Below are positions 32,311-55,238 of a stretch of 64,000 bases of DNA, piece after piece. The notes under the pieces are model-generated. The model was not told the DNA's origin, ran no database searches, and worked only from the letters and a program-made list of their open reading frames with translations. The first letter of the stretch is position 1. Each line of letters starts with the position of its first letter. This DNA is from Pseudomonadota bacterium (GTDB lineage: Bacteria; Pseudomonadota; Gammaproteobacteria; Steroidobacterales; Steroidobacteraceae), in the NCBI GenBank assembly GCA_023423065.1, contig JAFAGC010000130.1, positions 60,118 to 124,117 on the forward strand, in the 5' to 3' direction. Both the position numbers and the translations under genes were made by a program.

Positions 32311-32335
32311 TACTCCAAGATCGCAGCCGACCGCT

Positions 32336-32890: not shown

Positions 32891-32920
32891 TCTTTACTGT
32901 CTCCTCGCGGGCGGCCTTGC

Positions 32921-37917: not shown

Positions 37918-37946
37918 GCGTCTTGAACTAAAGAGGGTTGTGCGAT

Positions 37947-37979
37947 ACAAACATAATGAGTGATGTGCGCAATGTTTGT
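37947..37979. promoter_or_regulatory. inverted repeat ACAAACAT-N17-ATGTTTGT in the dndA/dndB divergent region
   Basis: Perfect 8-bp arms at 37947-37954 and 37972-37979. The repeat lies just upstream of the preferred dndA start. Confidence 0.3.
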
Positions 37980-37985
37980 CAAACC

Positions 37986-39155
37986 ATGAACCAAACGTTT
38001 GTATCTCAACACACACAAGATGCAGCGGCTTACTTGGACTGCAACGCGACGACCCCTGTCGAGCCGGCAGTGCAGGCCCTTGTGGCACGGCACTTTGGCG
38101 AAGAGTTCGGCAACGCCGGCAGTCGAACACACGAATACGGCCTAAGGGCGAGCAAGACTGTGCAGCTGGCGCGCGAGCGCGTGGCGACAGTCGTTTCGGC
38201 GAAGGCTGAAGAGGTTATTTTCACCGCCGGCGCGACCGAAGCCAACAACCTGGCGATTCTCGGGCTCGCCGAGCATGGCGAAAAAACGGGCTGCCGGCAT
38301 ATCGTTTCTACGGCAATCGAACACAAGGCGGTCTTGGAGCCGCTTCAGGCCCTCAGCGCGCGCGGTTTCGATGTGACCTTGCTCCGGCCTAAAGAGAATG
38401 GGGCGGTAGATCCCACCGCCATAGCCGCGGCCCTAAAGCCCGAGACCCTATTGGTCTCGGTCATGCAGGCGAATAACGAAACCGGTATTCGCCAACCGAT
38501 CACGGAAATCGCCGCTGCGTTAGCTGGGCACGACGCCTACTTTCATGTCGACGCGGCGCAAGGTTTTGGCAAAGACCTTGAATCGTTGCGCTCGACGCGT
38601 ATCGATCTACTCAGCGTGAGCTCGCACAAGATTTTCGGACCCGTGGGGGTGGGGGCGCTCATTGCCCGACGACGTGGCTTTCGCAAGCCGCCGCTACAAC
38701 CGCTGATGTTTGGCGGCGGTCAGGAACGCGGTCTACGGCCAGGTACGCTTCCTGTGCCACTAATCGCAGGTTTTGGATTGGCTGCCGAGATGGCTGTTAC
38801 TCAAAACGCCCAACGGCGGTCGCGATGCGAGGCCATGCGTTTCGACGCGCTGGCCGCGCTACGCCCGCTCAACCTTTTCATGCATGGCAATCCCGACAAC
38901 GCCCTGCCGCACGTCCTCAACTTCTCCATCGATGGCCTCGACTCCGAGGCAATCATGGTCGCCCTGAAGGGCATCGCTGCCATCTCTAACGGCTCGGCCT
39001 GCACCTCGCAGAGCTACAAACCTAGCCATGTCCTGCAGGCGATGGGGCTGACTGACGCGCAAATCGCGGGCGCGGTACGGATCTCCTGGTGTCATCTAAC
39101 ACCTGACCCTGACTGGCATACCATCGCGGCGAGGCTCGCGCAGATTCAGCGTTGA
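37986..39155 (+). CDS. dndA: cysteine desulfurase DndA (IscS/NifS-like)
   Basis: YLDCNATTPVEP, SSHKIFGPVG (PLP lysine) and SNGSACTS (active-site Cys). Divergent from dndB, as in classical dnd loci. The start is uncertain, with alternatives at 37938 and 37956. Confidence 0.85.
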   Translation: MNQTFVSQHTQDAAAYLDCNATTPVEPAVQALVARHFGEEFGNAGSRTHEYGLRASKTVQLARERVATVVSAKAEEVIFTAGATEANNLAILGLAEHGEKTGCRHIVSTAIEHKAVLEPLQALSARGFDVTLLRPKENGAVDPTAIAAALKPETLLVSVMQANNETGIRQPITEIAAALAGHDAYFHVDAAQGFGKDLESLRSTRIDLLSVSSHKIFGPVGVGALIARRRGFRKPPLQPLMFGGGQERGLRPGTLPVPLIAGFGLAAEMAVTQNAQRRSRCEAMRFDALAALRPLNLFMHGNPDNALPHVLNFSIDGLDSEAIMVALKGIAAISNGSACTSQSYKPSHVLQAMGLTDAQIAGAVRISWCHLTPDPDWHTIAARLAQIQR

Positions 39156-39163
39156 GGGCAGCC

Positions 39164-40429
39164 TTAGGCTGCCGCATCCGCCTCCATCATCCGCAGGTAA
39201 TGCTCCGTCAGAGAGCCAATCTCCACGAGCGTTGGCTTCAGGAAGTTGGACTGGGTGATCATCGTCTCACCCTTGAGTTCCTTTAGCGCCTCAAGCAATG
39301 ACTGCAGCGTATTGAGTGGTGTCTGTCGAGCCTTCTGATGCAGATACTCCGCCTCGACGAGGCGCATCGGCTTCGTGGCCTTCTCAGGGTTGGATACGTC
39401 GAATTGCGAGGCGAACCCGGTACCGTTCTCCGAGTCGTACTTTGACATGTCATTCCACAAACGGATGTTCTCGGCCTTGTAAAAGACGTTTGGATTCTTG
39501 TCCTCATCTTTGCGAGGTTGCGAAAAGGCCCACTGAAAAAGCGCCTTCTCGGCCTCATCCGAGAGGTAGAGCCGGTCTTTAGTGAACGCGAACTGTTCCT
39601 GTGCGTACTTGTGCTGGAGGATGTTCTCGAAGAAGTACTGATCGCTATCTGAGAACTCCTCTCCCTCAGGCAATTGATCGTCGTAGTGTCGCTTGAAGTG
39701 GCTGAAGGCAGAGGCTGCCTGGATGTTGCGACGAGTCTTGGTCTCGCCGAGCGACACCATTGATGCCACGCGTGCGATCAAGTGTTGCTCGAGCCGAAGC
39801 GGCTCTTCATCGCCGTACTGGTCGCGAAACAGTCGCTCGTAGAGCGAGGTAATGTAGAGATTCGTCGCGTAGGGACCCCACTGACGCGCATGCGTGATGT
39901 GCCGAACACCCAGCAGCCGCGGCAGCTTCTCTTCCAATTCCGCAGCCGTGGCCGCGTTCACCGGATAAACCTGAAGCCTGTCGGTGTCATTGAAGATCGC
40001 TTCCAGGCGTTCGACATGAAGCTGTTGCTGCTTGATTTCCTCGGCGGGCATCTTGCTGCCCTTCGTGAACTTCGAGAGCTTCGCTTTCTCTCGCTCAAGA
40101 CGTGGTCCGCGAATGCTGCGCAGAACCGATACGCGCGTATTGCCCTCGACCACAATGTAGTGGCCTTTGCGATCGGGATGCTCCCACACAATGATCGGAT
40201 CGATCGGCACCCAGCCCTGGGCGATGATCGCATCTTCAAGATCGCCGGCCTGGTAGACCGTATAGACCTTCGTGGTCAGGTCTTTTTGCAGGTTCTCCTC
40301 GAAGATTTCTTCGGGATCTTCGTAACGCGTCGCGCGATCCGGCGCAATGCGTGGATTGTTAGGGTCGAGAAAGATCTTCGAAAAGGGGACGGTGATGGCC
40401 TTTCCCAGATCGCCAAATGATTTAATCAT
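39164..40429 (-). CDS. ParB/Srx-fold (ParB N-terminal-like) domain protein
   Basis: KIFLDPNNPRI ... IVWEHPDRKGHYIVVEGNTRVSVLR resembles the ParB-like nuclease/NTPase domain. Its ATG overlaps the helicase stop (GATGATTAA), which suggests translational coupling. Confidence 0.6.
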   Translation of the reverse strand: MIKSFGDLGKAITVPFSKIFLDPNNPRIAPDRATRYEDPEEIFEENLQKDLTTKVYTVYQAGDLEDAIIAQGWVPIDPIIVWEHPDRKGHYIVVEGNTRVSVLRSIRGPRLEREKAKLSKFTKGSKMPAEEIKQQQLHVERLEAIFNDTDRLQVYPVNAATAAELEEKLPRLLGVRHITHARQWGPYATNLYITSLYERLFRDQYGDEEPLRLEQHLIARVASMVSLGETKTRRNIQAASAFSHFKRHYDDQLPEGEEFSDSDQYFFENILQHKYAQEQFAFTKDRLYLSDEAEKALFQWAFSQPRKDEDKNPNVFYKAENIRLWNDMSKYDSENGTGFASQFDVSNPEKATKPMRLVEAEYLHQKARQTPLNTLQSLLEALKELKGETMITQSNFLKPTLVEIGSLTEHYLRMMEADAAA

Positions 40430-42872
40430 CGTTGTTCTCCTCAGCGTGTGCCGAAAGTTTCGAAAGATGAAGCACACGCACGGCGTAGTTGTGTTCACCC
40501 AAGAAGGCTGCGAGATTCAGGAATAGTCGAGTAGGAAGCTCACGCGCGTCACGGCTCGCGAGAAAGCGCGCCAACACTCCGAACTGCTCGGCCGGCGCGA
40601 CCATTTGCAGGTCGGTGGTCGCAGCCGTTGTACATCTATCCAACGCGAAAGCTTCCTCGCTCGATAGCAGCCAGCCTTCGTGGCCCCCGAGCGGCAAGGG
40701 AATCTTGACCGCGAGTACAAAGGGCGTTGCGTCGCTAAGGTAGCTAGCGACGAGTTCCTGTCGGTTATAGCAATCCGCCAGGAAGTTTTGCAGCGCCTCC
40801 GGCAGCAGCGGGCGGAAATGAAAGGTTACGTACCGAAGCCAGGTTGTGGGACCGTGACGCTTCGAGGGCCTCGACTCCTTGGCCATCTTGTTCGAACCGT
40901 AGATCTCCTCGCGGGCGAAGTACGACGCGGTGAGCACCTGCATGAGTTCCGCCCACGCACTACCGGGTGTCAGGTCCTTTGAGACGCCGAATCGCGCGCC
41001 TTCACGCGTCAGAAAGTCTGACGGATCTGAGAGGGTCGCGCCACGCTCGGAGAAAGAATTGAAGACACCGCGAAAGGCCACGCTGTTCTGCGGATACTCC
41101 AGGAAGGCACCCCATGTTGCCTGCTCATCAAATCGCTCTGGGGCACCGTAGTACGGCAGACCATAGAGAAGCAGCCGGCACTTGTCGTCTGAGCCAAGAG
41201 CGGCAACTCGGCCGGTGATGCGCTGGCGAGCCGCCCCACCGACGTTGTAGCGATCAAGCATGTTGGTGACCTTCTGCTTGAGGTCATCCAGGCTTGAGTA
41301 GTCGATATCAATCAGCTCGGGGCGCAGATAGTCGCTGATCTCCTGATACAGCCAGCGCTGCTCGAAGTAGTACGCAAGTTCATCACGACGCGCCTGAACG
41401 ACGTACGCCGCAGTCTTGGACGGTGAGTATCGAACGCAGCGTCCCGCCGCCTGCATCAATCGCACCAGACTCGAGGTCGGATATGTCAGCACCACGGTAT
41501 TGATGCTTGGATCGTCAAATCCTTCGAGCAACAGCTGCGCAGAAACCAGAATCGCGCGTGGCTTCTCCGCGAAGATGTCCAGGAAATCGTCGTTGTCGAT
41601 ATGAAGCGAGTTACCGCTGCCATGGATGAACCCGATATCGGACACATCTAGGGGATGCCCATCGGCTTGGGCGGTTGCGAGGGCTTCGAGCAGAGCATCG
41701 TGGAACTCCACGACGCGCTCGATGCGCGGCGCGAGAACCAGAACTTTCGTGAACTCTCCGCCGCAGCGATCGATGACGTAGTCCGCGAGATCTTGAACCT
41801 GAGATTCCGACCACTCGAAATCCTGAACAGGGAATGGCTCGAACTTGGGCATGACGATGCAGCCGCGTTCCTCGAGCTCTCGATACGTGATAGTGAATGC
41901 GACCTCGTCGATGCCGATCGGCAGCAGGTCTGCACGATTCGGCGTTGCGGTGAGAAAAAGCGCTGGAACGGGATAGGTCGCCTCAAAAATCGGTTGGTAG
42001 GTGGGCGCAGCGGCGTGGTGAGCTTCATCGACGACCACAAGTACAGGCGGCACAGCATCTTCGGCAAGAATAGTTGTCAGCTCACTTACCATGACAAAGC
42101 GAATCCGCTTGGCGAGCAGTGACGCCGCATCATCTGGCACCGCGCTGCGACTGGTGGATAACAACTTCTGAAGTTCTCGGTGCGCCTGAGTACGCAGGTT
42201 CTTGCGATGCGTGACCCAGTAAACGAGCCCTGCGGCGTTCGCTGACTTGGCCAGCATTTCCAGGACGATGCGAAGCGCCGTGCGCGTCTTTCCAGCACCG
42301 GTGGGAAGGATCAGTCCAACCTTCGAGTGTGGTCGTTGGCGAAACGCATCGAGGCAATGCGAGACAGCGACGTCTTGGTAGCTCCAGTCTGGCGTCGTGC
42401 CGCGAGAGCGACCCGCAGTCTCCGGCTTAAGCGCCACCGCAACGGCACCGCCGATCGTCGTCGCGGCGGGCTCCGTTGAGAGAACGTGACGAAGGACGGC
42501 CGGAGGTAATCCCAACCGCCTGATGAGGTCCTCGCGTGGAAGCCGACGGTCGTCTTGCAAGTGGCGAACCTCTGCTCGAAGTTCTACCAAGCGCTTTTCC
42601 GAGCGCTGCCGCCAACCCGAGTCGGAGACTGTATAGGTGGCAACCGCCGCCTCAACGAGCCCGATGGTTGCGTCATTCACACCGCGGGAAACGTCGTCCG
42701 ACAACAAGGCATGAAGACGATTCGGATGAATGACCTCCCCATCACGCTTATCGAGCGCCAAGTTCAATGTCTTGCAGAGGGCCGCGGTGTTGCGCTCGGC
42801 GAGAAAGAGCGGAACAAGCTGCCCGTCGACGAGCTCACGGATGCGGGGGTCATGAATGCTGATACGGGCCAT
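40422..42872 (-). CDS. SF2 (DEAH / type III restriction Res-like) helicase, dnd-adjacent
   Basis: Motif I ILPTGAGKT, motif II VVVDEAHH, motif III LTATPNR, motif VI QAAGRCVRY. About 160 aa at the N-terminus and about 330 aa at the C-terminus are unassigned. Confidence 0.8.
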   Translation of the reverse strand: MARISIHDPRIRELVDGQLVPLFLAERNTAALCKTLNLALDKRDGEVIHPNRLHALLSDDVSRGVNDATIGLVEAAVATYTVSDSGWRQRSEKRLVELRAEVRHLQDDRRLPREDLIRRLGLPPAVLRHVLSTEPAATTIGGAVAVALKPETAGRSRGTTPDWSYQDVAVSHCLDAFRQRPHSKVGLILPTGAGKTRTALRIVLEMLAKSANAAGLVYWVTHRKNLRTQAHRELQKLLSTSRSAVPDDAASLLAKRIRFVMVSELTTILAEDAVPPVLVVVDEAHHAAAPTYQPIFEATYPVPALFLTATPNRADLLPIGIDEVAFTITYRELEERGCIVMPKFEPFPVQDFEWSESQVQDLADYVIDRCGGEFTKVLVLAPRIERVVEFHDALLEALATAQADGHPLDVSDIGFIHGSGNSLHIDNDDFLDIFAEKPRAILVSAQLLLEGFDDPSINTVVLTYPTSSLVRLMQAAGRCVRYSPSKTAAYVVQARRDELAYYFEQRWLYQEISDYLRPELIDIDYSSLDDLKQKVTNMLDRYNVGGAARQRITGRVAALGSDDKCRLLLYGLPYYGAPERFDEQATWGAFLEYPQNSVAFRGVFNSFSERGATLSDPSDFLTREGARFGVSKDLTPGSAWAELMQVLTASYFAREEIYGSNKMAKESRPSKRHGPTTWLRYVTFHFRPLLPEALQNFLADCYNRQELVASYLSDATPFVLAVKIPLPLGGHEGWLLSSEEAFALDRCTTAATTDLQMVAPAEQFGVLARFLASRDARELPTRLFLNLAAFLGEHNYAVRVLHLSKLSAHAEENNDD

Positions 42873-43140: not shown

Positions 43141-45804
43141 TTGAATGGCGAAGCACAACGCGCCCCCGCGCCAGACACATCGGCAAGACTCGGTAAGCAG
43201 GTTGCCGACAGGTGCTACGTCCACGTCAGCGGCATTGACGAGCTCGATGAGATATCGCGCGACCTGGCGAGTGAAGGCATCCGAATTTCGGGGCTCACGC
43301 CTGGGCACGATTTCAACGTCGTTCGAGTGCGGCCTTCTTGCGGTGAAGTCGCCCTCCTCGACTATGCTCAGTTCTTCGTCGAGGCGTTCCCAGCATTGGC
43401 CCGCAGCTGGCGAGTACATATTCCAACGGAGACCGTTCGTCTCCGCGACTACTCCGCGTCTCTCAATCCGCCGATCCTGCATCGTAAAGAGCTGTTGCTG
43501 ACCGCGACGCATCCTGACCGCGCGCAATTCGCCGCACTCACCGCCTCTGCCGAATCGTTGGGGTTATTCGATGACCCGCATCGCATTGGTTTCAAGGCGC
43601 AGTGGCACGAGATCCTGCAACGCCGTGGATACATGGTGTTGGACCACGCATTGCTTCCTATCGGAAATGCCGAGCCTTCGGCAGATGACACCGAGATCGT
43701 TGAGCTCCGCCAGATCCAGCGCCACCTTACGGCGCTATCGCGCACCTCTCTTTCGGCGCCGATTCAGAGCTTGTTGCGCGACGATCTCCTGAAACCGGGC
43801 ACCACATTCTTTGACTACGGATGCGGAAAAGGCGATGACCTTCGAGGACTCGAGGCGCTGAGCATTTCAGGCAGCGGTTGGGACCCGTATCACCATCCGA
43901 CTGGTATTCGCGTGGAGGCGGATGTCATCAACCTCGGATTCGTAATTAACGTGATCGAAGACTTCGATGAACGCGTCGAAGCGCTCCTCGGTGCCTTCAA
44001 GTTGTGTCGTCAAGTCCTGGCGGTTTCTGCGATGTTGGAGGGGGCCGGGAAACCCGGTCGGCCGTTTCGCGATGGGCTACTTACGGGACGCAACACGTTC
44101 CAGAAGTATTTCACTCAAAGCCAACTCCAGCAGTTCATCGAGGCGGTGTTGGACGAGGAAGCGATTCCAGCGGCCCCGGGTGTCTTCTATGTGTTTCGAG
44201 ACCGACTCTTTGAGCAACGCTTCCTCGTTCATCGTCAGAGCAGCCGACTCCGCCGCCACCGCGCTCTGCCTAACCGCTCAACAATCGTTGCGCCGAACCA
44301 ATGGACAGAGCCGACGCCGCATCGCGTGCAACGCCGGGAAGCGCACACAGCAACGCCTCAGGATGAGGTCAGACCTCCACGTCTAAGACATGCCCGTTCG
44401 CCACCCGCGATCGATCAAGCCAAGCAAGAATGTGCATTGCAGTTGTGGAATCGCTGTATCGAGCTTGGGCGGAGCCCAGAGCCTGATGAAGTGGAAGGGC
44501 TTCCGGAAGTCGAGGCCCAATTCAGCTCTTTAGGCAAGGCAGTGAGGTATTGCCTCAAGAACTTCGATCGAGACGCGCTCGATAGATCAGGTCATGCACG
44601 ACGTGACGAGATACTGGTGATCTTGGCAATCGCGCGTTTCTCCAAGCGTCGTCGCTTCCACGACTTCGAAACGCGCCTTCAACGCGACATCAAAGCTTTC
44701 TTTGGATCATTGGCGAACGCCGAACGCGACGCACAGGCGCTGCTGTTTTCCGTAGGTGATCCTCTTGTACTTAGCGCGGCATGTTCGGATGCCGCGACAC
44801 ACGGGTTAGGCTACCTGGAGGAAGGCCAATCTCTTCAACTTCACACCTCCTTGGTGGAGCGGCTCTCGCCTGTGCTTCGGGTGTATATCGCTTGTGCAAC
44901 AGCACTCTTTGGCGACGTAAGAAATGTGGACTTGGTGAAGCTGCACATCAGTTCTGGAAAAGTAACGTTGATGCGCTTCGATGACTTCGTGAACAAGCCG
45001 CTCCCCGCAATGACCGAGCGAATCAAGGTAAAGCTCAAAGAGCAGGACATGGACATCTTCCGATACGGAGGTGATTTTCCGGAGCCCCTGCTCTACGAAA
45101 AGTCGCGCTTCATAAATGAGGAGTTCCCAAACTACGCCGAGCAAATCGCATTCGAAGAGAATCTTGCCCAACTCGCGCTAGTCGACGTCTCCGGGTACGG
45201 CCCCTCTGCAAGAGTTATCAACACCGCGCTTAGAACTGCTCGTTGGGAGATTGATGGTTTTGAGCTGCGACGAAGCCGCACATTGCCTGGTCTCGAAGAA
45301 AGATGCAGCCGATACTTCACGTATCGCGAACTCATCGAAGTAGGCGATACGTGGTCAAACACGAGGACCCCGAATGTCCCAGCGTCACCGGATACCTTCA
45401 ACGCGATCGGGGATCTTGCCCGACTGGTGCTTGATCCCGTCGTGGAGTATTTCGGCAAGATCGAAATCACATACGGCTTCTGCTCGGCAACGCTGGCGCG
45501 GCAGATCAAGCGCGGCATAGATCCGAAACTCGATCAGCACGCATCATATGAGCTCAATACGCGGGGCAAGCGCATCTGCGATCGCGGGGGGGCCGCCGTT
45601 GATTTCATTGTTCAAGACGAAAACATGCTGGAGGTCGCTCAATGGATCGCCACGAATACACCCTTCGATCGCCTTTACTACTACGGACAGTCTCGACCGC
45701 TTCATGTGAGTTTCGGCCCTGATGCACGCCGCGAGTTGATTGAAATCGAGGAGATTAATGGACGAAGAATGCCGCGAAGGTGGCGCCACTCATCGGCGAA
45801 CTAA
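43141..45804 (+). CDS. dnd-associated putative SAM methyltransferase fused to a C-terminal M15 (Zn DD-peptidase/Hedgehog-fold)-like domain
   Basis: NPPILHRKELLL and FFDYGCGKGDDLRGL (motif I). The C-terminal KIEITYGFCS...LDQHASYE...GGAAVDFIV...PLHVSF matches the order of the H/D/H metal ligands in M15A. The TTG at 43141 has AAGGAAG upstream. The maximal ORF (GTG) starts at 43042. Confidence 0.65.
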   Translation: MNGEAQRAPAPDTSARLGKQVADRCYVHVSGIDELDEISRDLASEGIRISGLTPGHDFNVVRVRPSCGEVALLDYAQFFVEAFPALARSWRVHIPTETVRLRDYSASLNPPILHRKELLLTATHPDRAQFAALTASAESLGLFDDPHRIGFKAQWHEILQRRGYMVLDHALLPIGNAEPSADDTEIVELRQIQRHLTALSRTSLSAPIQSLLRDDLLKPGTTFFDYGCGKGDDLRGLEALSISGSGWDPYHHPTGIRVEADVINLGFVINVIEDFDERVEALLGAFKLCRQVLAVSAMLEGAGKPGRPFRDGLLTGRNTFQKYFTQSQLQQFIEAVLDEEAIPAAPGVFYVFRDRLFEQRFLVHRQSSRLRRHRALPNRSTIVAPNQWTEPTPHRVQRREAHTATPQDEVRPPRLRHARSPPAIDQAKQECALQLWNRCIELGRSPEPDEVEGLPEVEAQFSSLGKAVRYCLKNFDRDALDRSGHARRDEILVILAIARFSKRRRFHDFETRLQRDIKAFFGSLANAERDAQALLFSVGDPLVLSAACSDAATHGLGYLEEGQSLQLHTSLVERLSPVLRVYIACATALFGDVRNVDLVKLHISSGKVTLMRFDDFVNKPLPAMTERIKVKLKEQDMDIFRYGGDFPEPLLYEKSRFINEEFPNYAEQIAFEENLAQLALVDVSGYGPSARVINTALRTARWEIDGFELRRSRTLPGLEERCSRYFTYRELIEVGDTWSNTRTPNVPASPDTFNAIGDLARLVLDPVVEYFGKIEITYGFCSATLARQIKRGIDPKLDQHASYELNTRGKRICDRGGAAVDFIVQDENMLEVAQWIATNTPFDRLYYYGQSRPLHVSFGPDARRELIEIEEINGRRMPRRWRHSSAN

Positions 45805-45854: not shown

Positions 45855-46868
45855 CTATCGCACGCGAGGAGGTTTCTCCCGAGAGCTGTCGGAAAGCCCG
45901 GTAGCGATCCACTCCCGATCCGTTTGTGGTTCTGACATGCGCTCGATGAACTTCAAGACTTCGTCAGCTAGCTGGCGATGCCCGCCTTCTACCAACCGAT
46001 CTGTCGTTGCGCGCCATCCGTGTTTGACGTTCTCGCGAGTCGTGAGCAAAGCACTTTTACCCTGCTCAATGCGAATATTGCCGCGCGACAGTTCGGCGGC
46101 GACTGACTCGACCCGCTCTCGCACGTGGCTTGAGGCCCCTCGCAGGCTGGCTCGAAAGATTCCGTCCTTCGCCGATTTTCTGTCTTGTCCACGAACTGCA
46201 CGCTCGGTAGCGTTCGCCGGCACACCGAGTTGCCGCAAATTCTTCGCGAACTCGGACCGCCAATGCCGCAGTTTTGCTTTTCTAATATTCAGACGCACAC
46301 CTTGCTCGTTCATCGCTTTCAGCACTAGGTGAACGTGCGGATGGTCTTCGTCTGTATGCAGGACGAACGCGTATCGGTGCTGCCCCCAGAACTCTTCCCG
46401 CGCCAGGTTACGAACGGCAGTGAGCACTTTGTCCGGCGGCGTTCCGGCAGGCATCGAAAACATCAGCTTATGAACCAACTTCGCTGGAGTTCTTCCTTGC
46501 GTCCCAGCGAGCGCGGTTTGGCGCCGAGCATCGTCGATATCCAGATCCCATTCCTCTAAGAGTGCCATTCCCCTTTCATCTTGGAGTCCAAGTCCGGAAT
46601 CAGTTTCTAACTCGAGCCCTCCGTATCGACTGATGTAGTCGAGATGGTTTGCTGCGGCCTTCAGGTCGTTGCTCGCTCGCGGAAGTACCTTCACCATCAC
46701 TTCGGGCGTGCGCTTTACTGTCCGGCGAATCTGCTCTACCTGTTCATGTGTTAGACGACCACCGTTTTCACGCGGCCCACCACGACCGTAGGACACGATG
46801 TCGAACAGTGCTTCGCCTCCGCTTGGAACCCTAAACTTGGGCATGGCCAACGCTCCAGCTTGTGACAT
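45855..46868 (-). CDS. relaxase/mobilisation nuclease (VirD2/MOBP-like)
   Basis: The histidine triad region FVLHTDEDHPHVHLVLKA and the N-terminal region preceding it are relaxase-like. An alternative start lies at 46844. Confidence 0.8.
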   Translation of the reverse strand: MSQAGALAMPKFRVPSGGEALFDIVSYGRGGPRENGGRLTHEQVEQIRRTVKRTPEVMVKVLPRASNDLKAAANHLDYISRYGGLELETDSGLGLQDERGMALLEEWDLDIDDARRQTALAGTQGRTPAKLVHKLMFSMPAGTPPDKVLTAVRNLAREEFWGQHRYAFVLHTDEDHPHVHLVLKAMNEQGVRLNIRKAKLRHWRSEFAKNLRQLGVPANATERAVRGQDRKSAKDGIFRASLRGASSHVRERVESVAAELSRGNIRIEQGKSALLTTRENVKHGWRATTDRLVEGGHRQLADEVLKFIERMSEPQTDREWIATGLSDSSREKPPRVR

Positions 46869-47376
46869 TGGCCTTCAGAAGCTCCCTAGTGCTCTCACGT
46901 AGCGCTTCGCAGATCTTGAGCATCGCCCGCAACTCTTCACGCACCGAGCTAGGCAATCTGCCACCCTCGTTTGCGACCTTGGCGATCTGATTGATGTTCC
47001 GCCCGATGGAAGCGAGCTCTGCGATGCTTCGCTTTAGCGCCAGCAGCTCGCCCTTCGGCAATGGCGATTGCGAGCGTAGGTGGGCGCGCACAAGGACGGA
47101 GACATAGGTCGCCGCTGGCAATGCCCGGGCAGCCGCGCGCTCACGCAATAGCCTTTCATCCTCCGCTTGCAGGCGAACGGTTAAGCGTACTGGTCGCTTG
47201 GCGTTTTCTCCCGGCAAGTCCACAGCGCGCTCCGGACCATCGGCACCTCGGAGCATGACTCCGAGCAGCTGTTTGAGGAGCGCTGATTCAGTCTTGTTCT
47301 CGCGATGCGCGAGTGTCCGAAAGGCCTCCTTCATCTCCGGTGAGACTTGAACTGCGATAAGTGCGCGCGATGACAT
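46831..47376 (-). CDS. mobC: MobC-family relaxosome accessory protein (RHH)
   Basis: LASIGRNINQIAKVAN (compare MobC RIGNNLNQIAR), plus two RHH-like segments. Confidence 0.75.
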   Translation of the reverse strand: MSSRALIAVQVSPEMKEAFRTLAHRENKTESALLKQLLGVMLRGADGPERAVDLPGENAKRPVRLTVRLQAEDERLLRERAAARALPAATYVSVLVRAHLRSQSPLPKGELLALKRSIAELASIGRNINQIAKVANEGGRLPSSVREELRAMLKICEALRESTRELLKANVTSWSVGHAQV

Positions 47377-47464
47377 TGAGCGGAAGTGTTAAACACCAGC
47401 GGCCGCGAGGCTATCCTGCATTTCGCTCAAAATTGCGCCGAAACTTCACGCTCGCTCCACGTCG
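47377..47464 (+). other. candidate oriT with the nick motif TATCCTG/C
   Basis: The intergenic DNA immediately upstream of mobC contains TATCCTGC (47412-47419), which matches the MOBP/IncP nic consensus YATCCTG/Y. It is preceded by the palindromes GTGTTAAACAC (47386-47396) and GCGGCCGC (47399-47406). Confidence 0.5.
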
Positions 47465-47773
47465 TTACTTCTCCTCGTGAGGCTGCCTGGAAGCTTGCCG
47501 TGATTTGCCCGTTGCCTTCCCCGACCTCGGTACCTTGCTCGGACGTGGCGGCTGACGGAACAAAAATGCGTCCACAATCTCGGGCCATGCCGCTCGAAAC
47601 GCGGCCTCGCCCTCCTGCGTATCGAGCGACCGCAGCAAGTCCGCCGGCATGTGCTCGGCTGAGGATTGGGCAATTAGTCGGGCGAGGCGGTTAAGGATCT
47701 CCTGCCCCTCCGGACTCTTTAGGCGCTCATCAAGTGCTTTCCGGGACGCATCATCCAGCTTCAGTTCAGCCAT
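47465..47773 (-). CDS. hypothetical protein (first gene of the leading region)
   Basis: 102-aa ORF with plausible composition. No motif recognised. Confidence 0.45.
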   Translation of the reverse strand: MAELKLDDASRKALDERLKSPEGQEILNRLARLIAQSSAEHMPADLLRSLDTQEGEAAFRAAWPEIVDAFLFRQPPRPSKVPRSGKATGKSRQASRQPHEEK

Positions 47774-47841
47774 GAAATCTCCCCTGCTCCGTCAATTCCG
47801 GGAAGAGGGTACCTGCGAGCACCCCCTCCCCGGCAACCGGA

Positions 47842-48666
47842 CTACCCTACCAGCGCCTCCCGGGCCATATCCCAGAGCGCTCCATTGAGCTTCACGTCCT
47901 GGCGGATCGAAGTGATTCGACGTGTGCGCGTCAGCCTTCCGGTTGCAGACCGCCGGCTCAATCCACCGGTAAGCAGGTTTTCCTGGACCCGATTGAGCAC
48001 GCTCCAGAGGTCATCGCCAGCATCGTCTGGTCGCCGGCAAGTCAGCAGCTGCGACGGCTGCATGCCGCTCTCCACTGGCACCGGGAATCGCAACGCGAGG
48101 GCGCGCTCCGCGAAAGCGATCTGTTCATCCAAGAACATGGCCCGCTCCTCCATGCGTTCGACCTGGCGCGCGAGGCCTTCGAACTGCTCGCAGATCTTGA
48201 GCGCGCCAGTGACGACCTCGTCAACCACATCGCCGCGGTGTGAGACGCAGTACGCCGGAAACGCACCGTGAGAGACGATGAGTCCATTGGTGCAGACGAC
48301 TCGATACAGGCCCATCCTCAGTTGATAGGCGCTGGTGCCATCGTGACTGTTCAGAAAGACGATCTCCGGAATCGAGTCCTTGAGCTGAACCGTCTCGAAC
48401 CGCCGGCGCAGCCGAAGCGCATGGCGTGCATGCTGCGGACTGGTCGTGCGCGTTTGCGCCTGGCGGACGTCCATCGGCACAAAGCCAGCGCTCATGAGAC
48501 CTGACAGCACGCGCTCGGTAGGAATGAAGGTGTACTTGGAACTTGTGCGCTCATGCGCGCCGCTGGCGAACACAGCCGGTGCGCGTTCGCGTAAGGCATC
48601 GAGCGTCAGCGGCTGAGTGAACGCACTGGCGCGCGACGAGAATGACGTATCTGACATCGTATTCAT
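47842..48666 (-). CDS. DUF932-family protein (typical of ICEs and plasmids)
   Basis: LTLDALRERAPAVFASGAHERTSSKYTFIPTERVLSGLMSAGFVP is the typical DUF932 opening. The start was taken at MNTMSD (48666). The upstream part of the listed ORF is the translated repeat. Confidence 0.75.
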   Translation of the reverse strand: MNTMSDTSFSSRASAFTQPLTLDALRERAPAVFASGAHERTSSKYTFIPTERVLSGLMSAGFVPMDVRQAQTRTTSPQHARHALRLRRRFETVQLKDSIPEIVFLNSHDGTSAYQLRMGLYRVVCTNGLIVSHGAFPAYCVSHRGDVVDEVVTGALKICEQFEGLARQVERMEERAMFLDEQIAFAERALALRFPVPVESGMQPSQLLTCRRPDDAGDDLWSVLNRVQENLLTGGLSRRSATGRLTRTRRITSIRQDVKLNGALWDMAREALVG

Positions 48667-48685
48667 GGATTGATCCTCGAGAAGC

Positions 48686-48840
48686 TTCTTGGGCGGGATT
48701 GCCCAGAGCCCCCGGATCACGGCGCGCGCAGCGGTCAAGGATCGAAGACCGCCGCAGGCGGCGAGTGCGTCCGCACTCGTCCTTGACGGCGAGCACGTCG
48801 TGATAGGCTGCAATCGAATCAGACAATCCCGCCCTCTTCC
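48686..48840 (-). repeat. structured 5'-leader repeat, copy 1 (ssDNA-promoter-like / radC-motif-like)
   Basis: Nested complementary segments: 48691-48700/48825-48834, 48716-48721/48799-48804 and 48734-48741/48780-48787, plus two inner hairpins. Two more copies lie at 49364 and 50724. Confidence 0.75.
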
Positions 48841-48933
48841 TTTCAGTTCTGCACTCTGGCTTCACTGACGATGTGCGTGGACCTATGAAGGGAAAGTGCG
48901 CCGAACCCAAGGCGGGCCCGGCGCACAGGGAAC

Positions 48934-49347
48934 TCAGTCAATAGCCGAAAAGATCAGTGCCGCCTCCTCATGGTTCAACCCGAACTCCCGCAGCCGGTGG
49001 AAGTGCTCGCTGAAGGTGTCGTTTGAGTATTCGAATGACAGTTGGCTGAAGGCAAACAAACACACTGCGATTCCCGCAGCATCGGCGCTCATCCGTTCCG
49101 AGAATCCGTTGCTGTCGATCCGTAGCTCGTACGCGGCTTCCGGCGGCGCCATGTAGAAACCGCCATTGCTGAGCTCGTAGAACTTCCAAAGACCACCGTC
49201 ATATGCACTCGCGAACCGCGACATGAAGTCGTAGATGCGCTCTTCAACGGTGAGCATGTGCATTCCGAAGTGCCGCGGCAAGGTTCCGATTCGCGCATGC
49301 TCCAATACCAGGTACGCCTCAATCTTCGTGGGTGAGCTCGTCGTCAT
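48934..49347 (-). CDS. anti-restriction protein (ArdB/KlcA family)
   Basis: YDGGLWKFYELSNGGFYMAP ... AAGIAVCLFAFSQLSF is typical of the Antirestrict (KlcA/ArdB) family. Confidence 0.8.
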   Translation of the reverse strand: MTTSSPTKIEAYLVLEHARIGTLPRHFGMHMLTVEERIYDFMSRFASAYDGGLWKFYELSNGGFYMAPPEAAYELRIDSNGFSERMSADAAGIAVCLFAFSQLSFEYSNDTFSEHFHRLREFGLNHEEAALIFSAID

Positions 49348-49363
49348 GGATTTCTCCGATGGG

Positions 49364-49516
49364 TCTTGGGCGGGATTGCCCGCGACTCCCGGATCACGGC
49401 GCGCGCAGCGGTCAAGGATCGACGACCGCCGTTAGGCGGCGAGTGCGTCCGCACTCGTCCTTGACGGCGAGCACGGCGTGATAGGCTGAAGCAATAAGTA
49501 ATCCCGCCCTCTTCTT
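49364..49516 (-). repeat. structured 5'-leader repeat, copy 2
   Basis: Nearly identical to copy 1 (GGGCGGGATTGCCC...CGGTCAAGGATCG...TCCTTGACGGCGAGCACGGCGTGATAGGCTG...AATCCCGCCC). It sits immediately 5' of the anti-restriction gene. Confidence 0.75.
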
Positions 49517-49579
49517 CTTCGCCTCCCTGGTTCAAACTACCGCGAGCGTTAGATTTCGCGGTCTAAGAGGAGAAGCCTG

Positions 49580-50128
49580 ATGCGCTGCGCAATGACCGGT
49601 CTTCCGATGCGTGACACGTCGGAAGGCATCTACGACGACGGTGAGTGGATCAGCTGGGACTGGATCAATGGTCAGATCGCCGATCAGGAGCTGCAGCGTG
49701 AGTTTCCGAAGGCGAACGTCGAGGTTGTGAAGATCTTTCACGATCTCGTAACCCTGGCTGAGGCCTACAAGCATGAGACAGGTCGCTACCTTCAGATCTG
49801 GGGAGAGCTCGGGGAGCTCTATGCGGAGATCAAGTTTGGCGTCGAGCGTCATCGACCCGGAACGAAAGGTTCCGACGGTCGCCTTGGCAATGATTGGATA
49901 GAGGTCAAGACAATCTCCCCCGAGAAGGGAGGCGAAACCGTTCATGTAAAGAGGGCGGGCAACTTCAACAAGCTCTTGGTCGTCAGGGTCAGCGAGGATT
50001 TCGAGTTCGAAGCGAAGCTCATTGATAGAAAGCTTCTCGGCAAGTCCAAGGGCAAACTGGCCAAGGTCAAGTGGTCGCGCCACCCGGGTCTTGAGGAGAA
50101 GGATCCGGAGGCAACCCTTCTCCCCTGA
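49580..50128 (+). CDS. hypothetical protein with a PD-(D/E)xK-like motif
   Basis: GELGELYAEIKFG ... GSDGRLGNDWIEVKT shows the E / D / ExK arrangement. It is the only plus-strand gene within the minus-strand leading region. Confidence 0.5.
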   Translation: MRCAMTGLPMRDTSEGIYDDGEWISWDWINGQIADQELQREFPKANVEVVKIFHDLVTLAEAYKHETGRYLQIWGELGELYAEIKFGVERHRPGTKGSDGRLGNDWIEVKTISPEKGGETVHVKRAGNFNKLLVVRVSEDFEFEAKLIDRKLLGKSKGKLAKVKWSRHPGLEEKDPEATLLP

Positions 50129-50136
50129 ACCGGACG

Positions 50137-50703
50137 CTAGAGCAGGCCTCGTTCCGCGAAAGACAGCGTCTGTCCCGCTCCGACCACCAGGTGGTCGAGC
50201 GTCCGAATGTCGACGAGTGCCAGCGCATCTCGCAACCGCCGCGTGATGAGTTCGTCGGCCTGACTGGCCTCCGCCACTCCGCTTGGGTGATTGTGCGCAA
50301 AGATCACCGCGGCGGCGTTGTGGCGCAGCGCGCACTTCACGACTTCGCGAGGGTGGACGCTCGCGCCATCGATGGTGCCAGCAAACAGAATGTCGCTGGC
50401 AATTAACCGATGTCGATTGTCGAGAGCGAGAACGATGAACAGCTCCCGTTCCTGCGGAGCCAGCATTGTCTTCAGGTACTCGCGGGTCGCGCTCGGCGCA
50501 TTTAGAGAAACGCCACTCGCACCGGCGAGGCGAAGGAGAATGCCGCGCGCCTGCTCGAGTACCTGTGTCTCGTCGGCGGTCAGCCGTGAGTTCGCTTGCA
50601 GCAGATCAATACCGGACTCGACAAGATAGGTTCGACGCACTCGAGGCCTGCGAACCGAAGACTGTTGTGAGGAGCTTTCGCTCGCCCGTGTTTCATTGTT
50701 CAT
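50137..50703 (-). CDS. radC: RadC-family JAB/MPN domain protein
   Basis: [23 protein letters not shown] (JAMM motif HxHPSG...D). The start was taken at MNNETR (50703). Confidence 0.85.
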
Positions 50704-50723
50704 GACGACAGATCCTTGGATTC

Positions 50724-50875
50724 TCTTGGGCGGAATTGCCCGGATCGTCGGCATCACGGCGCGCGCAGCCGTCAAGGATCGAAGACCGCCGGAGGCGGCG
50801 AGCGCCTCCGCGCTCGTCCTTGACGGCGAGCACGGCGTGATAGGCTCAAGATTTACTGCAATCCGCCCGCCTATT
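50724..50875 (-). repeat. structured 5'-leader repeat, copy 3 (more diverged, with compensatory changes)
   Basis: Same architecture as copies 1 and 2. The inner hairpin reads CGAGCGC-CTCC-GCGCTCG, against CGAGTGC-GTCC-GCACTCG in copies 1 and 2. Confidence 0.7.
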
Positions 50876-51138
50876 TCTATTTGTTAGGGATTGCGTCTTT
50901 GGATTGACTCGTATGAGCATCGTCATATTTGGTCCGCTGCTCGAAATGCTGATAGTCAGTTCAGGCCGCCTCGTCCTAAGCCGCCGAGCGAAAACTGTGC
51001 GTCAGTTTGCATTCTTATCGATCGAATCGCCGACTAGCTGGCTCAACCTGCGGACCAGCAGGGCAAAATTCCGTGGTTTCGTTACCGTGTGGCACGTACA
51101 CAAATACTTTTGGCGGCATTCCAACAGGGACTAAGCAC

Positions 51139-52572
51139 GTGAAGTTGAACGATCTGATCCTTTTCGCTGCACTCCTTTTGCCGCTCACGGCGCTCGGGGG
51201 CCAGCAGAACGAAGAACAAGTAAGCGCAACGGAGTCATCACTTGATGAAATCGTTCAGCTCGCCGGGAAAGGCAATGCCGAAGCCCAATCGAAACTCGGC
51301 GCCGCCTACGCTCTCGGGAAGGGATTACCGCAAGACTCTTCGCTGGCGATTAGTTGGTTCCGGAAATCGGCCGAGCAAGGCCATGCCCAAGGCCAATATA
51401 ACCTTGGGGTGGCTTACTACCTCGGTGAGGGCGTGCAGCAGGACTACGCTCAGGCCGTCAGCTGGTTTCGCAAGGCAGCCGCACAAGGTCTTTCTGAAGC
51501 ACAAGCCTACCTTGGCATTTCTTACCGGCACGGGCACGGCGTGCCTCGAGACAATGGGCAGGCCGCGAGTTGGTACCGCAAAGCCGCCGAACAGGGGAAT
51601 GCATTTGCGCAAAATGAGTTCGGCGTTGCGCACCGTGACGGAGTCGGCGTGCCGAAGAACTACGCACAGGCCGTTAATTGGTTCCGTAAAGCCGCCGAGC
51701 AAGGGAATGCCGATGCGCAAACTTCTCTCGGCCGTGCTTACCAGAATGGAGAAGGTGTACCGCAGGACCAAGGGCTAGCTGTTAGTTGGTTCCGCAAGGC
51801 CGCCGAACAGGGGAATGCCGATGCGCAAGACAACCTCGGGCTTGCTTACGCCAACGCAAAGGGTGTACCTCAGGATTTCGCGCAGGCTACCGATTGGTTC
51901 CGCAAGGCTGCAGAACAGGGACACGCAGCCGCTCAAGTCAGGCTAGGCTTCGCCTATCGCTCCCAGGATCCTGCGCAGGCAGTAAGTTGGTTCCGAAAGG
52001 CAGCAGACCAAGGAGACGCCAGCGGGCAATTCATGCTCGGCATGGCTTACTCCCAAGGAAGCGGCGTACTGCAGGACTTTGTGCAGGCTGCCAGCTGGTT
52101 TCGCAAGGCAGCCGACCAAGGAAACGCCAGCGCGCAATTCATGCTCGGAAGCGCTTACGCCGGGGGACAGGGCGTGCCCCAGGATTACGCTCAGTCTACC
52201 AACTGGTACCGCAAGGCCGCCGAACAAGGAGACGCCGATGCGCAAGCCAAGATGGGACGCGCATATGCAGGAGGACACGGCGTACCGCAGGATTACAAGC
52301 TAGCTGCCCATTGGCTCCGTAAGGCGGCCGAACAAGGGAATGCCGAAGCGCAAGTTGGCCTCGGCCTTCACTACGGCGCGGGGTTCGGTGTACCGCAAGA
52401 TTCTGTGCTCGCATATGCTTGGCTGAATCTTGCGGCATCCCAAGGCAAAGACGGCGCCTCAGCGTCGCGCGACAGGGAAGCAGAGCGGCTCTCGCGATCG
52501 CAACTTGCCGAAGCTCAACGCCTCAGCAGCAATTGGCGTAAAGGCAAATCTCTCCAGCGGGAAGCCAAGTAG
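51139..52572 (+). CDS. secreted Sel1-like repeat (SLR) protein
   Basis: At least 12 tandem ~36-aa units of the form AQxxLGxAYxxGxGVPQDYAQAxxWFRKAAEQGxAxAQ. GTG 51139 follows AGGGA. There is a signal-like LILFAALLLPLTALGG. Confidence 0.8.
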   Translation: MKLNDLILFAALLLPLTALGGQQNEEQVSATESSLDEIVQLAGKGNAEAQSKLGAAYALGKGLPQDSSLAISWFRKSAEQGHAQGQYNLGVAYYLGEGVQQDYAQAVSWFRKAAAQGLSEAQAYLGISYRHGHGVPRDNGQAASWYRKAAEQGNAFAQNEFGVAHRDGVGVPKNYAQAVNWFRKAAEQGNADAQTSLGRAYQNGEGVPQDQGLAVSWFRKAAEQGNADAQDNLGLAYANAKGVPQDFAQATDWFRKAAEQGHAAAQVRLGFAYRSQDPAQAVSWFRKAADQGDASGQFMLGMAYSQGSGVLQDFVQAASWFRKAADQGNASAQFMLGSAYAGGQGVPQDYAQSTNWYRKAAEQGDADAQAKMGRAYAGGHGVPQDYKLAAHWLRKAAEQGNAEAQVGLGLHYGAGFGVPQDSVLAYAWLNLAASQGKDGASASRDREAERLSRSQLAEAQRLSSNWRKGKSLQREAK

Positions 52573-54008: not shown

Positions 54009-55238
54009 TTAACCACGCACCAACTCAGCATCTCTGTCTCGAGCGGGCCGCATGCTCGGTGGCTTAGATGCGGGCTTCTCGCTCGCCCCTTGGGTGCGCC
54101 CGCGTTCCTTCAGCCGAGCCGGCGGCAACGCGTCCCCGCGAGCAACGGAGGTTGCGAGTGCTTCGCGCACTTTCTGAACAAAACGCTTCTGATCTTCGGG
54201 GTCGCGAAGTTGTTTGGCGGCGATCTCGGCAGCGTGCATTTGCAGATAGGTTCCCACCAACTCTGGATGCTTGCGTGCACCCTGCTTGGGATCGATCGAC
54301 GAATCTCGCAGGGTCTCTGCCGCGGCTGCTCGCTCTTGGAGGAACTCGCGCTTCTCGACGATCCAACGGTTCCGCACAGTTTGGAGGTCACGTTCGCGGA
54401 CAACCTTACCTTCGGCATCACGCTCGCGCGTCTTGACCGTAACAGGCTCTTGGCGCACCGCTCGCAATCCCACCAAATCGCCCGTCACCGGCTTGCTAAG
54501 AGACTCTTTGAAAGCCCGCTCCAGGTCTACGCCCCATACGGTCCGCTCGCCGGTCGAAGTCTCGACCTTCGCGTAATACGACATCGCCTCTTTCCTGTCG
54601 TGGTGATAGGGAGCGCGGCCGTGTTCGACAAGCGTTCCTACTAGCAATCCGCGAGGCCTGTTATCTCGCGCCGATCGATCTTGTGGCTGACCTACTTTCG
54701 CACGAACCCGCTGCTCCGCATGTGGTTCGGCAACTCGCAGCACGCCGGCCGCAGATTCCTTGGCCATAGAGCGCACCAGACGACTCTGCTCGAACTCGCT
54801 GGGTTTGTACCCTCTGGTCTCGAGTCCGGCAGCTTGTGCAGCCGCCCATGCCTCACGACGGAATCTCTCCGAGCCCTGCACTCGAACCTCGCCCCACCCT
54901 CGCGACTGCGCGATTGTGATCAGGCTTCGAATGACCTCCGTGTTCTCGCTCTGGGTCGTAAGCTTGTCGCCGCGGTCCGTGAATGCCTTGGCGCCATCCG
55001 GAAAAAAGTATTCATCCTTAACCTGCACGAAGCGACGGCGCACGTCTTCCGGCACAGCTGGCCTGGCTTCCGGCAGCCTTTCACGCGCCGCCGGCTTCGA
55101 CTGCTTGGGCTGCGCGGCAGCTTTGGGTGCGGCAGTCGGCTTCACGCGGCGCCGCGCAGGCCCGATGGAGTTTTCCTCAAGTTCCGGTGTTTCGGCAGCG
55201 CGTTTCACCGAAGGGGCGCTGTCGCGAGCGTTGCTCAT
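54009..55238 (-). CDS. LPD7-domain protein (conjugative-element associated)
   Basis: YFFPDGAKAFTDRGDKLTTQSENTEVIRSLITIAQSRGWGEVRVQGSERFRREAW...GLETRGYKPSEFE fits the large polyvalent protein-associated domain 7. Confidence 0.65.
   Translation of the reverse strand: MSNARDSAPSVKRAAETPELEENSIGPARRRVKPTAAPKAAAQPKQSKPAARERLPEARPAVPEDVRRRFVQVKDEYFFPDGAKAFTDRGDKLTTQSENTEVIRSLITIAQSRGWGEVRVQGSERFRREAWAAAQAAGLETRGYKPSEFEQSRLVRSMAKESAAGVLRVAEPHAEQRVRAKVGQPQDRSARDNRPRGLLVGTLVEHGRAPYHHDRKEAMSYYAKVETSTGERTVWGVDLERAFKESLSKPVTGDLVGLRAVRQEPVTVKTRERDAEGKVVRERDLQTVRNRWIVEKREFLQERAAAAETLRDSSIDPKQGARKHPELVGTYLQMHAAEIAAKQLRDPEDQKRFVQKVREALATSVARGDALPPARLKERGRTQGASEKPASKPPSMRPARDRDAELVRG

Follow-up and report, generated by a model that had tools for sequence, protein, structure and literature searches.

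A conserved hairpin element 5' of leading-region genes in an integrative and conjugative element as a putative single-stranded-DNA promoter

The window analysed here is a stretch of 64,000 nucleotides of a Pseudomonadota bacterium (assembly GCA_023423065.1, contig JAFAGC010000130.1), in which a GC-rich (63-72%), multi-stemmed hairpin element of about 150 nt is present in three copies. All of them lie on the + strand in the same orientation, clustered within 2.2 kb (48686-50875), and each stops 20-25 nt short of the start codon of a minus-strand gene. The three genes code for a DUF932 protein, an antirestriction protein of the ArdB/KlcA type and a RadC-like JAB-domain protein, respectively, and a small minus-strand open reading frame (ORF; 47465-47773) downstream of the DUF932 gene is probably co-transcribed with it. 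A predicted origin of transfer (oriT) and the genes for a MobC/NikA-like protein and a relaxase lie next to this region, and a virB/virD4 type IV secretion operon lies on its right side. The coordinates of these features are collected in Table 1.

Repeat finding, MAFFT and covariance-model search agreed on the three copies, and neither an HMM (hidden Markov model) search nor the covariance-model search detected a fourth one in the whole window. A first-pass annotation of this DNA had placed the copies at the same positions and had named the flanking genes, and both statements were borne out, the latter by Pfam. Pairwise identity among the copies is 77-91%. Their inner stems are ATCACG/CGTGAT and GTCAAGGA/TCCTTGAC, followed by two apical hairpins, of which the first reads CCGCC-loop-GGCGG with the loops GCA, GTTA and GGA, and the second CGAGTGC-GTCC-GCACTCG or, in copy 3, CGAGCGC-CTCC-GCGCTCG. 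The double compensatory change of T to C paired with A to G that the annotation had pointed out in this last hairpin is thus seen in the sequence. All of its other stems are present too, except that the outer stem, described as a perfect pairing of 10-mers, is interrupted in copy 3 by one bulged base (GGGCGGAATTG/CAATCCGCCC). The promoter-like arm was also found, with the correction that the gap of 15 nt after TTGACG ends at TAGGCT, the gap to TGATAGGCT being 12 nt. Folded as single-stranded DNA (ssDNA), the + strand of the copies reaches -44 to -50 kcal/mol, and its z-scores relative to dinucleotide shuffles lie between -4.4 and -5.2.

Table 1 Features of the window and related copies of the element. 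Positions are those of the window unless a locus is given; model, covariance model.
Feature	Position	Strand	Remarks
Copy 1	48686-48840	+	5' of DUF932; model extent 48680-48847; model match 149 bits
Copy 1, outer stem	48691-48701 / 48824-48834
Copy 1, stem S1	48716-48724 / 48796-48804
Copy 1, -35 stem	48734-48741 / 48780-48787
Copy 1, hairpins H1; H2	48749-48761; 48762-48779
Copy 1, promoter-like arm	48783-48809	+	spacer 15 nt
Copy 1, -35 TTGACG	48783-48788	+	paired
Copy 1, TG	48801-48802	+	paired
Copy 1, -10 TAGGCT	48804-48809	+	T-12 paired, A-11 to T-7 unpaired
Copy 1, CCC on 5' arm	48702-48704		opposite arm; predicted start nearby, direction towards 48666
Copy 2	49364-49516	+	5' of ArdB; model extent 49357-49522; 148 bits
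Copy 2, outer stem	49368-49378 / 49499-49509
Copy 2, -35 stem	49411-49418 / 49458-49465
Copy 2, hairpins H1; H2	49426-49439; 49440-49457
Copy 2, -35 TTGACG	49461-49466
Copy 2, TG	49479-49480
Copy 2, -10 TAGGCT	49482-49487
Copy 2, CCC on 5' arm	49379-49381
Copy 3	50724-50875	+	5' of RadC; model extent 50717-50881; 141 bits
Copy 3, outer stem	50728-50738 / 50859-50868		one bulge
Copy 3, -35 stem	50771-50778 / 50817-50824
Copy 3, hairpins H1; H2	50786-50798; 50799-50816		H2 with compensatory T>C / A>G change
Copy 3, -35 TTGACG	50820-50825
Copy 3, TG	50838-50839
Copy 3, -10 TAGGCT	50841-50846
Copy 3, CCC on 5' arm	50739-50741
DUF932 gene	47842-48666	-	PF06067, E 6e-34; behind copy 1
ArdB/KlcA-type antirestriction gene	48934-49347	-	PF03230, E 2e-33; behind copy 2
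Terminator-like hairpin	48896-48926	-	after ArdB gene
RadC-like JAB-domain gene	50137-50703	-	PF04002, E 3e-42; behind copy 3
oriT core, predicted	47386-47419	+	inverted repeat and nick-region sequence
Inverted repeat GTGTTAAACAC	47386-47396	+	5' of nick-region sequence
Nick-region sequence GGCTATCCTG/C (TATCCTGC)	47412-47419	+	predicted nick between G47418 and C47419
MobC/NikA-like gene	46831-47376	-	Pfam; transcribed away from oriT
MobA/VirD2-type relaxase gene	45855-46868	-	Pfam; transcribed away from oriT
Carriers of the ~85-nt apical module, among others	L017:1883-2095; L020:4236-4451; L030:4455-4669; L088:3498-3712; L130:2963-3174; L183:718-931

Genomes of Beta- and Gammaproteobacteria, together with metagenomes, supplied more than 300 relatives of the element. 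The genome scan used an exact pattern anchored on the promoter-like (3') arm and one genome per species; since this choice involves the very arm in question, the metagenome scan was anchored only on the opposite (5') arm (GGGCGGRATTGCCC...CACGNCGC). Each scan yielded at least 120 loci, those of the genome scan lying in Beta- and Gammaproteobacteria and a few Alphaproteobacteria. The genome scan gave at least 181 copies, with one to four per locus and never both strands in one locus. The covariance model (R1) aligned 150 matches of the genome set and 135 of the metagenome set. In the genome sample, 86.6% of the cells were paired compared to 30-46% in slid controls, and 20 of 46 pairs had changed on both sides; in the metagenome sample, the corresponding values were 86.8% compared to 28-43%, and 38 of 46 pairs (420 cells). 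None of 500 shuffles reached these values in either sample. The structure of the element is therefore under selection, as shown by covariation in two independent samples, and the suggestion of the first-pass annotation to this effect holds in larger alignments.

The pairing also bears on the choice of strand. Opposite the first T of TTGACG stands G instead of A in 84 of 127 genome copies and 52 of 122 metagenome copies; this T:G wobble on the + strand would be a C-A mismatch in the middle of a helix on the other strand. Over the other pairs, G:T exceeds A:C by 83 to 34 in the genome set (all other pairs) and by 113 to 46 in the metagenome set (well-paired positions), and this excess moderately favours the + strand as the folding strand. 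On the 5' arm, a CCC trinucleotide that the main fold leaves unpaired is nearly invariant throughout the family. It could be where an RNA beginning with GGG starts, or it could join a local hairpin, CGGGC-GGAATT-GCCCG, at the 5' end of the mRNA; the bases of this local hairpin hardly vary, so that covariation gives no information on it.

The conservation of the 3' arm was assessed on 109 unique metagenome copies picked via the 5' arm only, 26 of which match the pattern of the genome scan. The bases TTGA of the -35 element are kept in 101-106 of 106 copies and the following C and G in 97 and 92 of 105, respectively. T-15 and G-14 are present in all 106, A-11 likewise, and T-7 in 105 of 106. Any base occurs at -13, T (77) or C (21) prevails at -12, and positions -10 to -8 are variable (0.2-0.9 bits). 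Positions -13 and -12 are base-paired and covary (UA 33, CG 16 and GC 13 at -13; A:T 64 and G:C 19 at -12), and the adjacent TG pairs never change. Similarly, the TTGAC pairs are fixed and the three pairs directly above them covary freely, with GC 59, AU 27, CG 22 and UA 18 at the pair just upstream of the -35 element. A-11 and T-7 sit in an unpaired bubble. On the 3' arm, 126 of 127 copies keep the same distance between -35 and -10, whereas the facing stretch of the 5' arm varies over 17-19 nt. In structures of sigma region 2, A-11 and T-7 are the two bases flipped into sigma pockets, few base-specific sigma contacts are made at -10 to -8, and TG at -15/-14 is read in duplex DNA. At the level of sequence, the conservation of the 3' arm is thus the pattern of a sigma-70 -35 element, an extended -10 TG, A-11 and T-7, and it stands in a stable fold with imperfect pairing of the -10 region.

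The direction of transfer was deduced from the oriT region. The 88-nt gap upstream of mobC holds the sole TATCCTGC of the window, preceded by an inverted repeat, and the predicted nick region includes GGCTATCCTGCATT. RP4-type and Ti-type (VirD2) systems share the nick-region consensus YATCCTG/Y, where the slash marks the cut; in them, the repeat is located on the 5' side of the nick, and the genes of the relaxase enter last. In nine related loci, GGCTATCCTGC(A/G)TTTC was found on the element strand 0.7-3.6 kb 5' of the elements, with an inverted repeat in the same place whose sequence differs between loci in a covarying manner; the arrangement is conserved, and the oriT call of the first-pass annotation is right and does not rest on one 8-mer. 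Since the nick sequence lies on the element strand and 5' of the elements, the + strand is the transferred strand. Consequently, the leading region is that above 47419, and the three genes have the + strand as their template, as the first-pass annotation had assumed and as the conservation between the window and the nine loci supports. DNA 3' of the nick on the + strand is predicted to enter the recipient first, and the mobC and relaxase genes are transferred last. Copy 1 lies 1.3 kb from the nick and the three elements span 1.3-3.5 kb from it, on the transferred strand. The leading region also contains two + strand ORFs, 49580-50128 with a weak DUF6998 match and 51007-52572 with Sel1 repeats of 108-nt tandem periodicity. 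Each of them lies to the right of an element copy, on a strand that cannot be read from the incoming ssDNA, and a duplex form of the element promoter could in principle reach them.

The coupling to genes is tight throughout the family. At 2-13 nt past the model edge, an ORF begins on the opposite strand in about 150 of the 166 copies from genomes and in about 100 of the 112 from metagenomes. RadC is the most frequent family behind the element (77 copies in the genome set and 51 in the metagenome set), and DUF2958 (27 and 11), DUF932 (12 and 13) and ArdB (1 and 5) were found as well. Among the three genes most often behind the element is one for a 130-aa CxxC protein (MSDKSHVSIEQHICLVCGAAFETG...) without Pfam match (29 and 16 copies; for example at L044 ~1095 and L149:4081), which is a candidate early establishment protein of integrative and conjugative elements (ICEs). 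Further families comprise N6/N4 and DUF3560-linked methyltransferases, DUF6878, SymE-like proteins and small helix-turn-helix proteins. A PLSDB search found the element 5' of radC in Tn4371-like ICEs, which are carried on IncHI2 plasmids, on Pseudomonas megaplasmids and in Ralstonia. One such ICE, in NZ_CP027144.1 (107001-157000; locus L124), has inserted into an IncHI2 plasmid between umuD and umuC and has its backbone, from int to trb, all on one strand. In the same ICE, a diverged paralogue lies 5' of DUF932 (43343-43525 of that locus); it has TTGACG-16-TACGGT in a long hairpin (z -7.2) and keeps little else.

The apical domain of the element is replaceable, with lengths of 28-105 nt. A conserved module of about 85 nt, CGTGGAATAAATGG-AGGGG-ACCCGCG-TCTT-CGCGGGG-AGGC-GCCGTTTATGCCGCG-AAAG, takes the place of the two apical hairpins in 17 unique copies (Table 1). 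The module has no Rfam match and is carried by an extension of the -35 stem that covaries freely.

Given the covariation, the sigma-70-type bases and the strand assigned by oriT, we consider it likely that the element is an ssDNA promoter, active only while the DNA is single-stranded and driving the DUF932, ArdB and RadC genes; the Frpo-type promoter put forward in the first-pass annotation, named after the F plasmid element, is supported in this sense and came through each of the computational tests applied. In the proposed mechanism, the relaxase would nick the + strand at GGCTATCCTG/C (47418/47419) and lead it into the recipient 5' end first, so that the three elements would be among the earliest DNA to arrive. 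Each of them would fold on the single strand into a long imperfect hairpin, with its 3' arm in the role of the non-template strand of a sigma-70 promoter. In this fold, the -35 TTGACG and the extended -10 TG are in duplex, the duplex stops at -12, and A-11 to about +4 are exposed in a ready-made bubble, in which 15-17 nt face 14-15 nt. The outer stem of 11-12 bp provides the downstream duplex from about +5, and the fold as a whole resembles an open promoter complex. While the complementary strand is still absent, host RNA polymerase would use the 5' arm as template, start near the CCC and run towards the nick. In the transcript, a leader of about 40 nt, including a Shine-Dalgarno site, would precede DUF932, ArdB or RadC. 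Synthesis of the complementary strand would abolish the hairpin and stop expression, and the duplex remnant would be a weak promoter (15-nt spacer and three of six -10 matches) pointing away from the gene. A further role in priming or delaying the complementary strand, as known for Frpo and ssp2, is conceivable.

Several points weigh against this interpretation. The -10 hexamer matches the consensus at only three of six positions, and the spacer, usually 16-18 nt long, has 15 nt here. As RNA, the complementary strand is about equally good at folding (z -4.6 to -5.1), so that folding energy is no guide to the relevant strand. The excess of G:T over A:C is moderate (about 2.5 to 1), and one internal A-C position, beside an A-G mismatch and probably in an internal loop, points the other way. 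Covariance-model alignments lean towards the structure of the model. The leading-strand geometry is established only for the subfamily of the window. Most relatives belong to Tn4371-type ICEs, for which the search did not locate oriT or the transfer polarity; in a Tn4371-like ICE, the region upstream of rlxS is without ATCCTG, and YATCCTGY occurs 14 times, mostly inside genes. Finally, we infer promoter function, and with it polymerase binding, timing and shut-off, from sequence, fold and position, and the exact start site is a guess.

The strongest of the other explanations, although an unlikely one, is that the element is a structured 5'-untranslated-region (5'-UTR) RNA similar to the radC motif, which would be part of a minus-strand transcript from a promoter further upstream and control translation or stability. 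The element always lies immediately 5' of the gene and on its side, the minus-strand RNA fold is stable as stated above, covariation by itself does not separate RNA from ssDNA, and an element with the same gene neighbourhood was taken for RNA by Weinberg et al. 2010. However, a gene-sense sigma-70-like site was found within 130 nt upstream in only one of 161 flanks, compared to 1.8 expected from shuffles, and no ordinary sigma-70-like promoter was found in 47300-51100. In addition, the element lacks an expression platform, with the Shine-Dalgarno site located beyond the fold and the outer stem not followed by a U-tract, and no Rfam family matches. A 5'-UTR RNA would have a C-A mismatch in the middle of an 8-bp helix in 40-65% of the copies, and it does not predict the invariant -35, TG, A-11 and T-7 on the opposite strand or the fixed spacing on that arm only.

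Very improbable in our view is an ordinary duplex promoter or operator, in which TTGACG-15-TAGGCT fires rightwards, for example into the two + strand ORFs, and the repeat is the site of a regulator. The hexamers do read rightwards in duplex DNA, and copies 2 and 3 have such ORFs on their right, but a plausible rightward ORF lies within 300 nt in only 33 of 170 copies, compared to about 90% with a leftward ORF at a fixed distance, and in Tn4371-like ICEs the rightward transcript would be antisense to the neighbouring gene. The short spacer and the half-matched -10 would also make a poor duplex promoter. Moreover, compensatory changes occur in unconserved stems (H1, H2, the spacer and the base of the -35 stem), which argues for folding of a single strand and not for recognition of duplex DNA by a protein.

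We give an equally slim chance to the idea that the hairpin serves mainly in DNA processing, either in ssi- or sso-like priming of the complementary strand or as a roadblock like F ssp2. Frpo primes DNA synthesis and ssp2 stalls double-strand conversion (PMC12672017; bioRxiv 10.64898/2026.01.09.698686), and the GC content, the number of stems, the high stability and the presence of several copies per leading region are in line with such a role. Priming or stalling, however, needs neither a start codon at 2-13 nt nor a layout of one element per gene, a primer from the element could copy only 1-3 kb back to the nick, and in the known cases these roles are added to a promoter and do not replace one. 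That the copies are a dispersed repeat of the miniature inverted-repeat transposable element (MITE) or repetitive extragenic palindromic (REP) type without specific function is hardly conceivable, since a multi-copy, GC-rich palindrome of this kind would not be expected in exactly three co-oriented copies within 2.2 kb of a 64-kb window, conserved across classes of Proteobacteria with compensatory changes, without terminal inverted repeats or target duplications and with a constant distance to the start codon in about 90% of over 270 copies. On these counts, a rightward duplex promoter, a gene-sense promoter upstream and a MITE were all rejected.

More tentatively, and with rather less confidence than in the ssDNA promoter itself, we propose that the family is built to imitate the open complex and serves ICEs in environmental and clinical Proteobacteria as a general device. 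The duplex -35 and TG, the fork at -12, the bubble presenting A-11 and T-7 and the downstream clamp would permit initiation without DNA melting. The 15-nt spacer, together with the one to three extra bases on the opposite arm, would impose a strict dependence on the single-stranded state, and the swappable GC-rich apical domain would set the duration of the delay before double-strand conversion. If so, zygotic induction would not be peculiar to IncF and IncI plasmids, and RadC, DUF2958, DUF932 and the 130-aa CxxC protein would be early establishment factors of ICEs.

In the literature searched, ssDNA promoters are demonstrated for enterobacterial F and IncI plasmids and reported for the pLS20 family. 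In the enterobacterial plasmids, they decide on the survival of incoming DNA against restriction and other defences. If the interpretation of the element as an ssDNA promoter is true, the mechanism would extend to ICEs across Beta- and Gammaproteobacteria, including the Tn4371-like ICEs that reside on clinical IncHI2 plasmids and on Pseudomonas megaplasmids, and RadC-like JAB, DUF2958, DUF932 and 130-aa CxxC proteins would be predicted to act within the first minutes after transfer. The hundreds of natural variants and their covariation would then be comparable to a mutational scan for the requirements of RNA polymerase on folded ssDNA. The covariance model is also a possible means to annotate leading regions and transfer polarity in ICEs lacking a known oriT.

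Other parts of the window were noted in passing. An LPD7-domain protein is encoded between virD4 and the leading region (54009-55238, minus strand); such domains are known from large polyvalent proteins of conjugative elements. A DNA phosphorothioation-like cluster at 30218-42872, with two DndB-family genes, a PAPS-reductase/DndC-like gene and an SMC-like DndD gene, adjoins a ResIII/DEAD helicase and large unannotated ORFs and is, with these neighbours, probably defence cargo of the same island. The minus-strand ORF 24433-25515, in which an IS240-type DDE transposase domain is joined to an Arm-type integrase DNA-binding domain, may be a junction or fusion at the island edge.

Among known elements, the radC RNA motif (RF01754, Weinberg et al. 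2010) is found with the same kinds of genes in Proteobacteria, i.e. radC, methyltransferases, antirestriction genes and integrases, and shares the 5'-UTR position by radC-type genes. Context alone does not define membership in this family. The published alignment, CAUG-U-CCGUCGGC...AGGUAGCC...CAAGGCUAC...GGUGCGU, differs from the element in sequence and fold, its TTGAAG lies in a loop, and in one example the motif is about 130 nt from the start codon compared to about 20 nt for the element. RF01754 was absent from the window at gathering score, and from the 2.6-kb region and a single copy even at E<=10. Rfam 15, searched at gathering score and at E<=10 with the window, a single copy and 15 related loci, returned only noise (Acido-1, sR20 and miRNA hairpins). 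STAXI (RF01728) gave no match in these searches even at E<=10, and it consists of tandem pseudoknots in contrast to the single multi-stem hairpin of the element. The alternative identity as radC motif, which the first-pass annotation had suggested, is not supported, and neither is STAXI. A likeness also exists to ssoA and ssoU of rolling-circle plasmids and the sso of ICEBs1, which also offer -35/-10-like sequences on folded ssDNA to RNA polymerase; they make a short primer for lagging-strand synthesis without coupling to an ORF, whereas each copy of the element abuts a start codon.

The closest functional counterparts are the ssDNA promoters established experimentally in the leading regions of F and IncI1 plasmids. 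They fall into three sequence classes, i.e. Frpo/ssi, ssp2 located 5' of ardB/klcA/ardA, and the M.EcoGIX promoter (PMC9849209, PMC12672017, PMC13478746, bioRxiv 10.64898/2026.01.09.698686), and their wider occurrence has been predicted by similarity (PMC11541004). Our search for literature on ssDNA promoters in connection with radC, ICEs or Tn4371 gave no prior description, with incomplete coverage that leaves absence unproven. No homology to Frpo2 and ssp2 of F was detected: run with filters off on 16 kb of the F leading region, the covariance model gave no match at Frpo and 6.4 bits at ssp2, its top score of 16.9 bits falling on the wrong strand at an unrelated site, and the best E-value of blastn (word size 7) was 0.19. 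The element lacks the sequence similarity that defines the Frpo/ssi and ssp2 families and is an analogue of them.

Like the class 2 promoter ssp2 of F and pESBL, the element is GC-rich and would drive an ArdB-type gene. When folded, F ssp2 (L123:4343-4760, minus strand) has TTGCAT-15 nt-TAAGAT on its 3' arm with A-11 in an internal loop, and thus shares with the element the 15-nt spacer as well as a long downstream (basal) stem containing GGGCGG/CCGCCC. This may reflect convergence or very remote kinship, and the two may also share the roadblock property. They differ in the opening at -10, a small 3x3 loop in ssp2 and a 15-nt bubble in the element, and in that ssp2 was validated by 5' RACE (rapid amplification of cDNA ends) and deletions, whereas the element is known here from sequence analysis.

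The class 1 promoters Frpo1 and Frpo2 of F and ssi1-3 of ColIb-P9 resemble the element in organisation. They, too, are leading-region hairpins on the transferred strand, with -35 and -10 on the 3' arm and mispaired -10 bases, present in several copies and reading back towards oriT into establishment and anti-defence genes. The F leading region, in which DUF932, ArdB-like, ParB-like and methylase genes are also present, shares several of the gene families found behind the element, and its arrangement of transferred strand and template strand is the same as in the window. Unlike Frpo/ssi, which occur on IncF and IncI plasmids about 150 nt from the gene, the element belongs to Beta- and Gammaproteobacterial ICEs with a VirD2/MobA-type relaxase, lies about 20 nt from the gene, is already open over a large bubble from -11 to about +4 that ends at a downstream stem, carries an apical three-way junction, and is without an A+T-rich UP element. 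Taken together, the comparison supports, by analogy of function, a new sequence and structure class within a known kind of element, and the reading that fits best is a class of ssDNA promoter on ICEs that is unrelated in sequence to Frpo and ssp and would act as their functional analogue.

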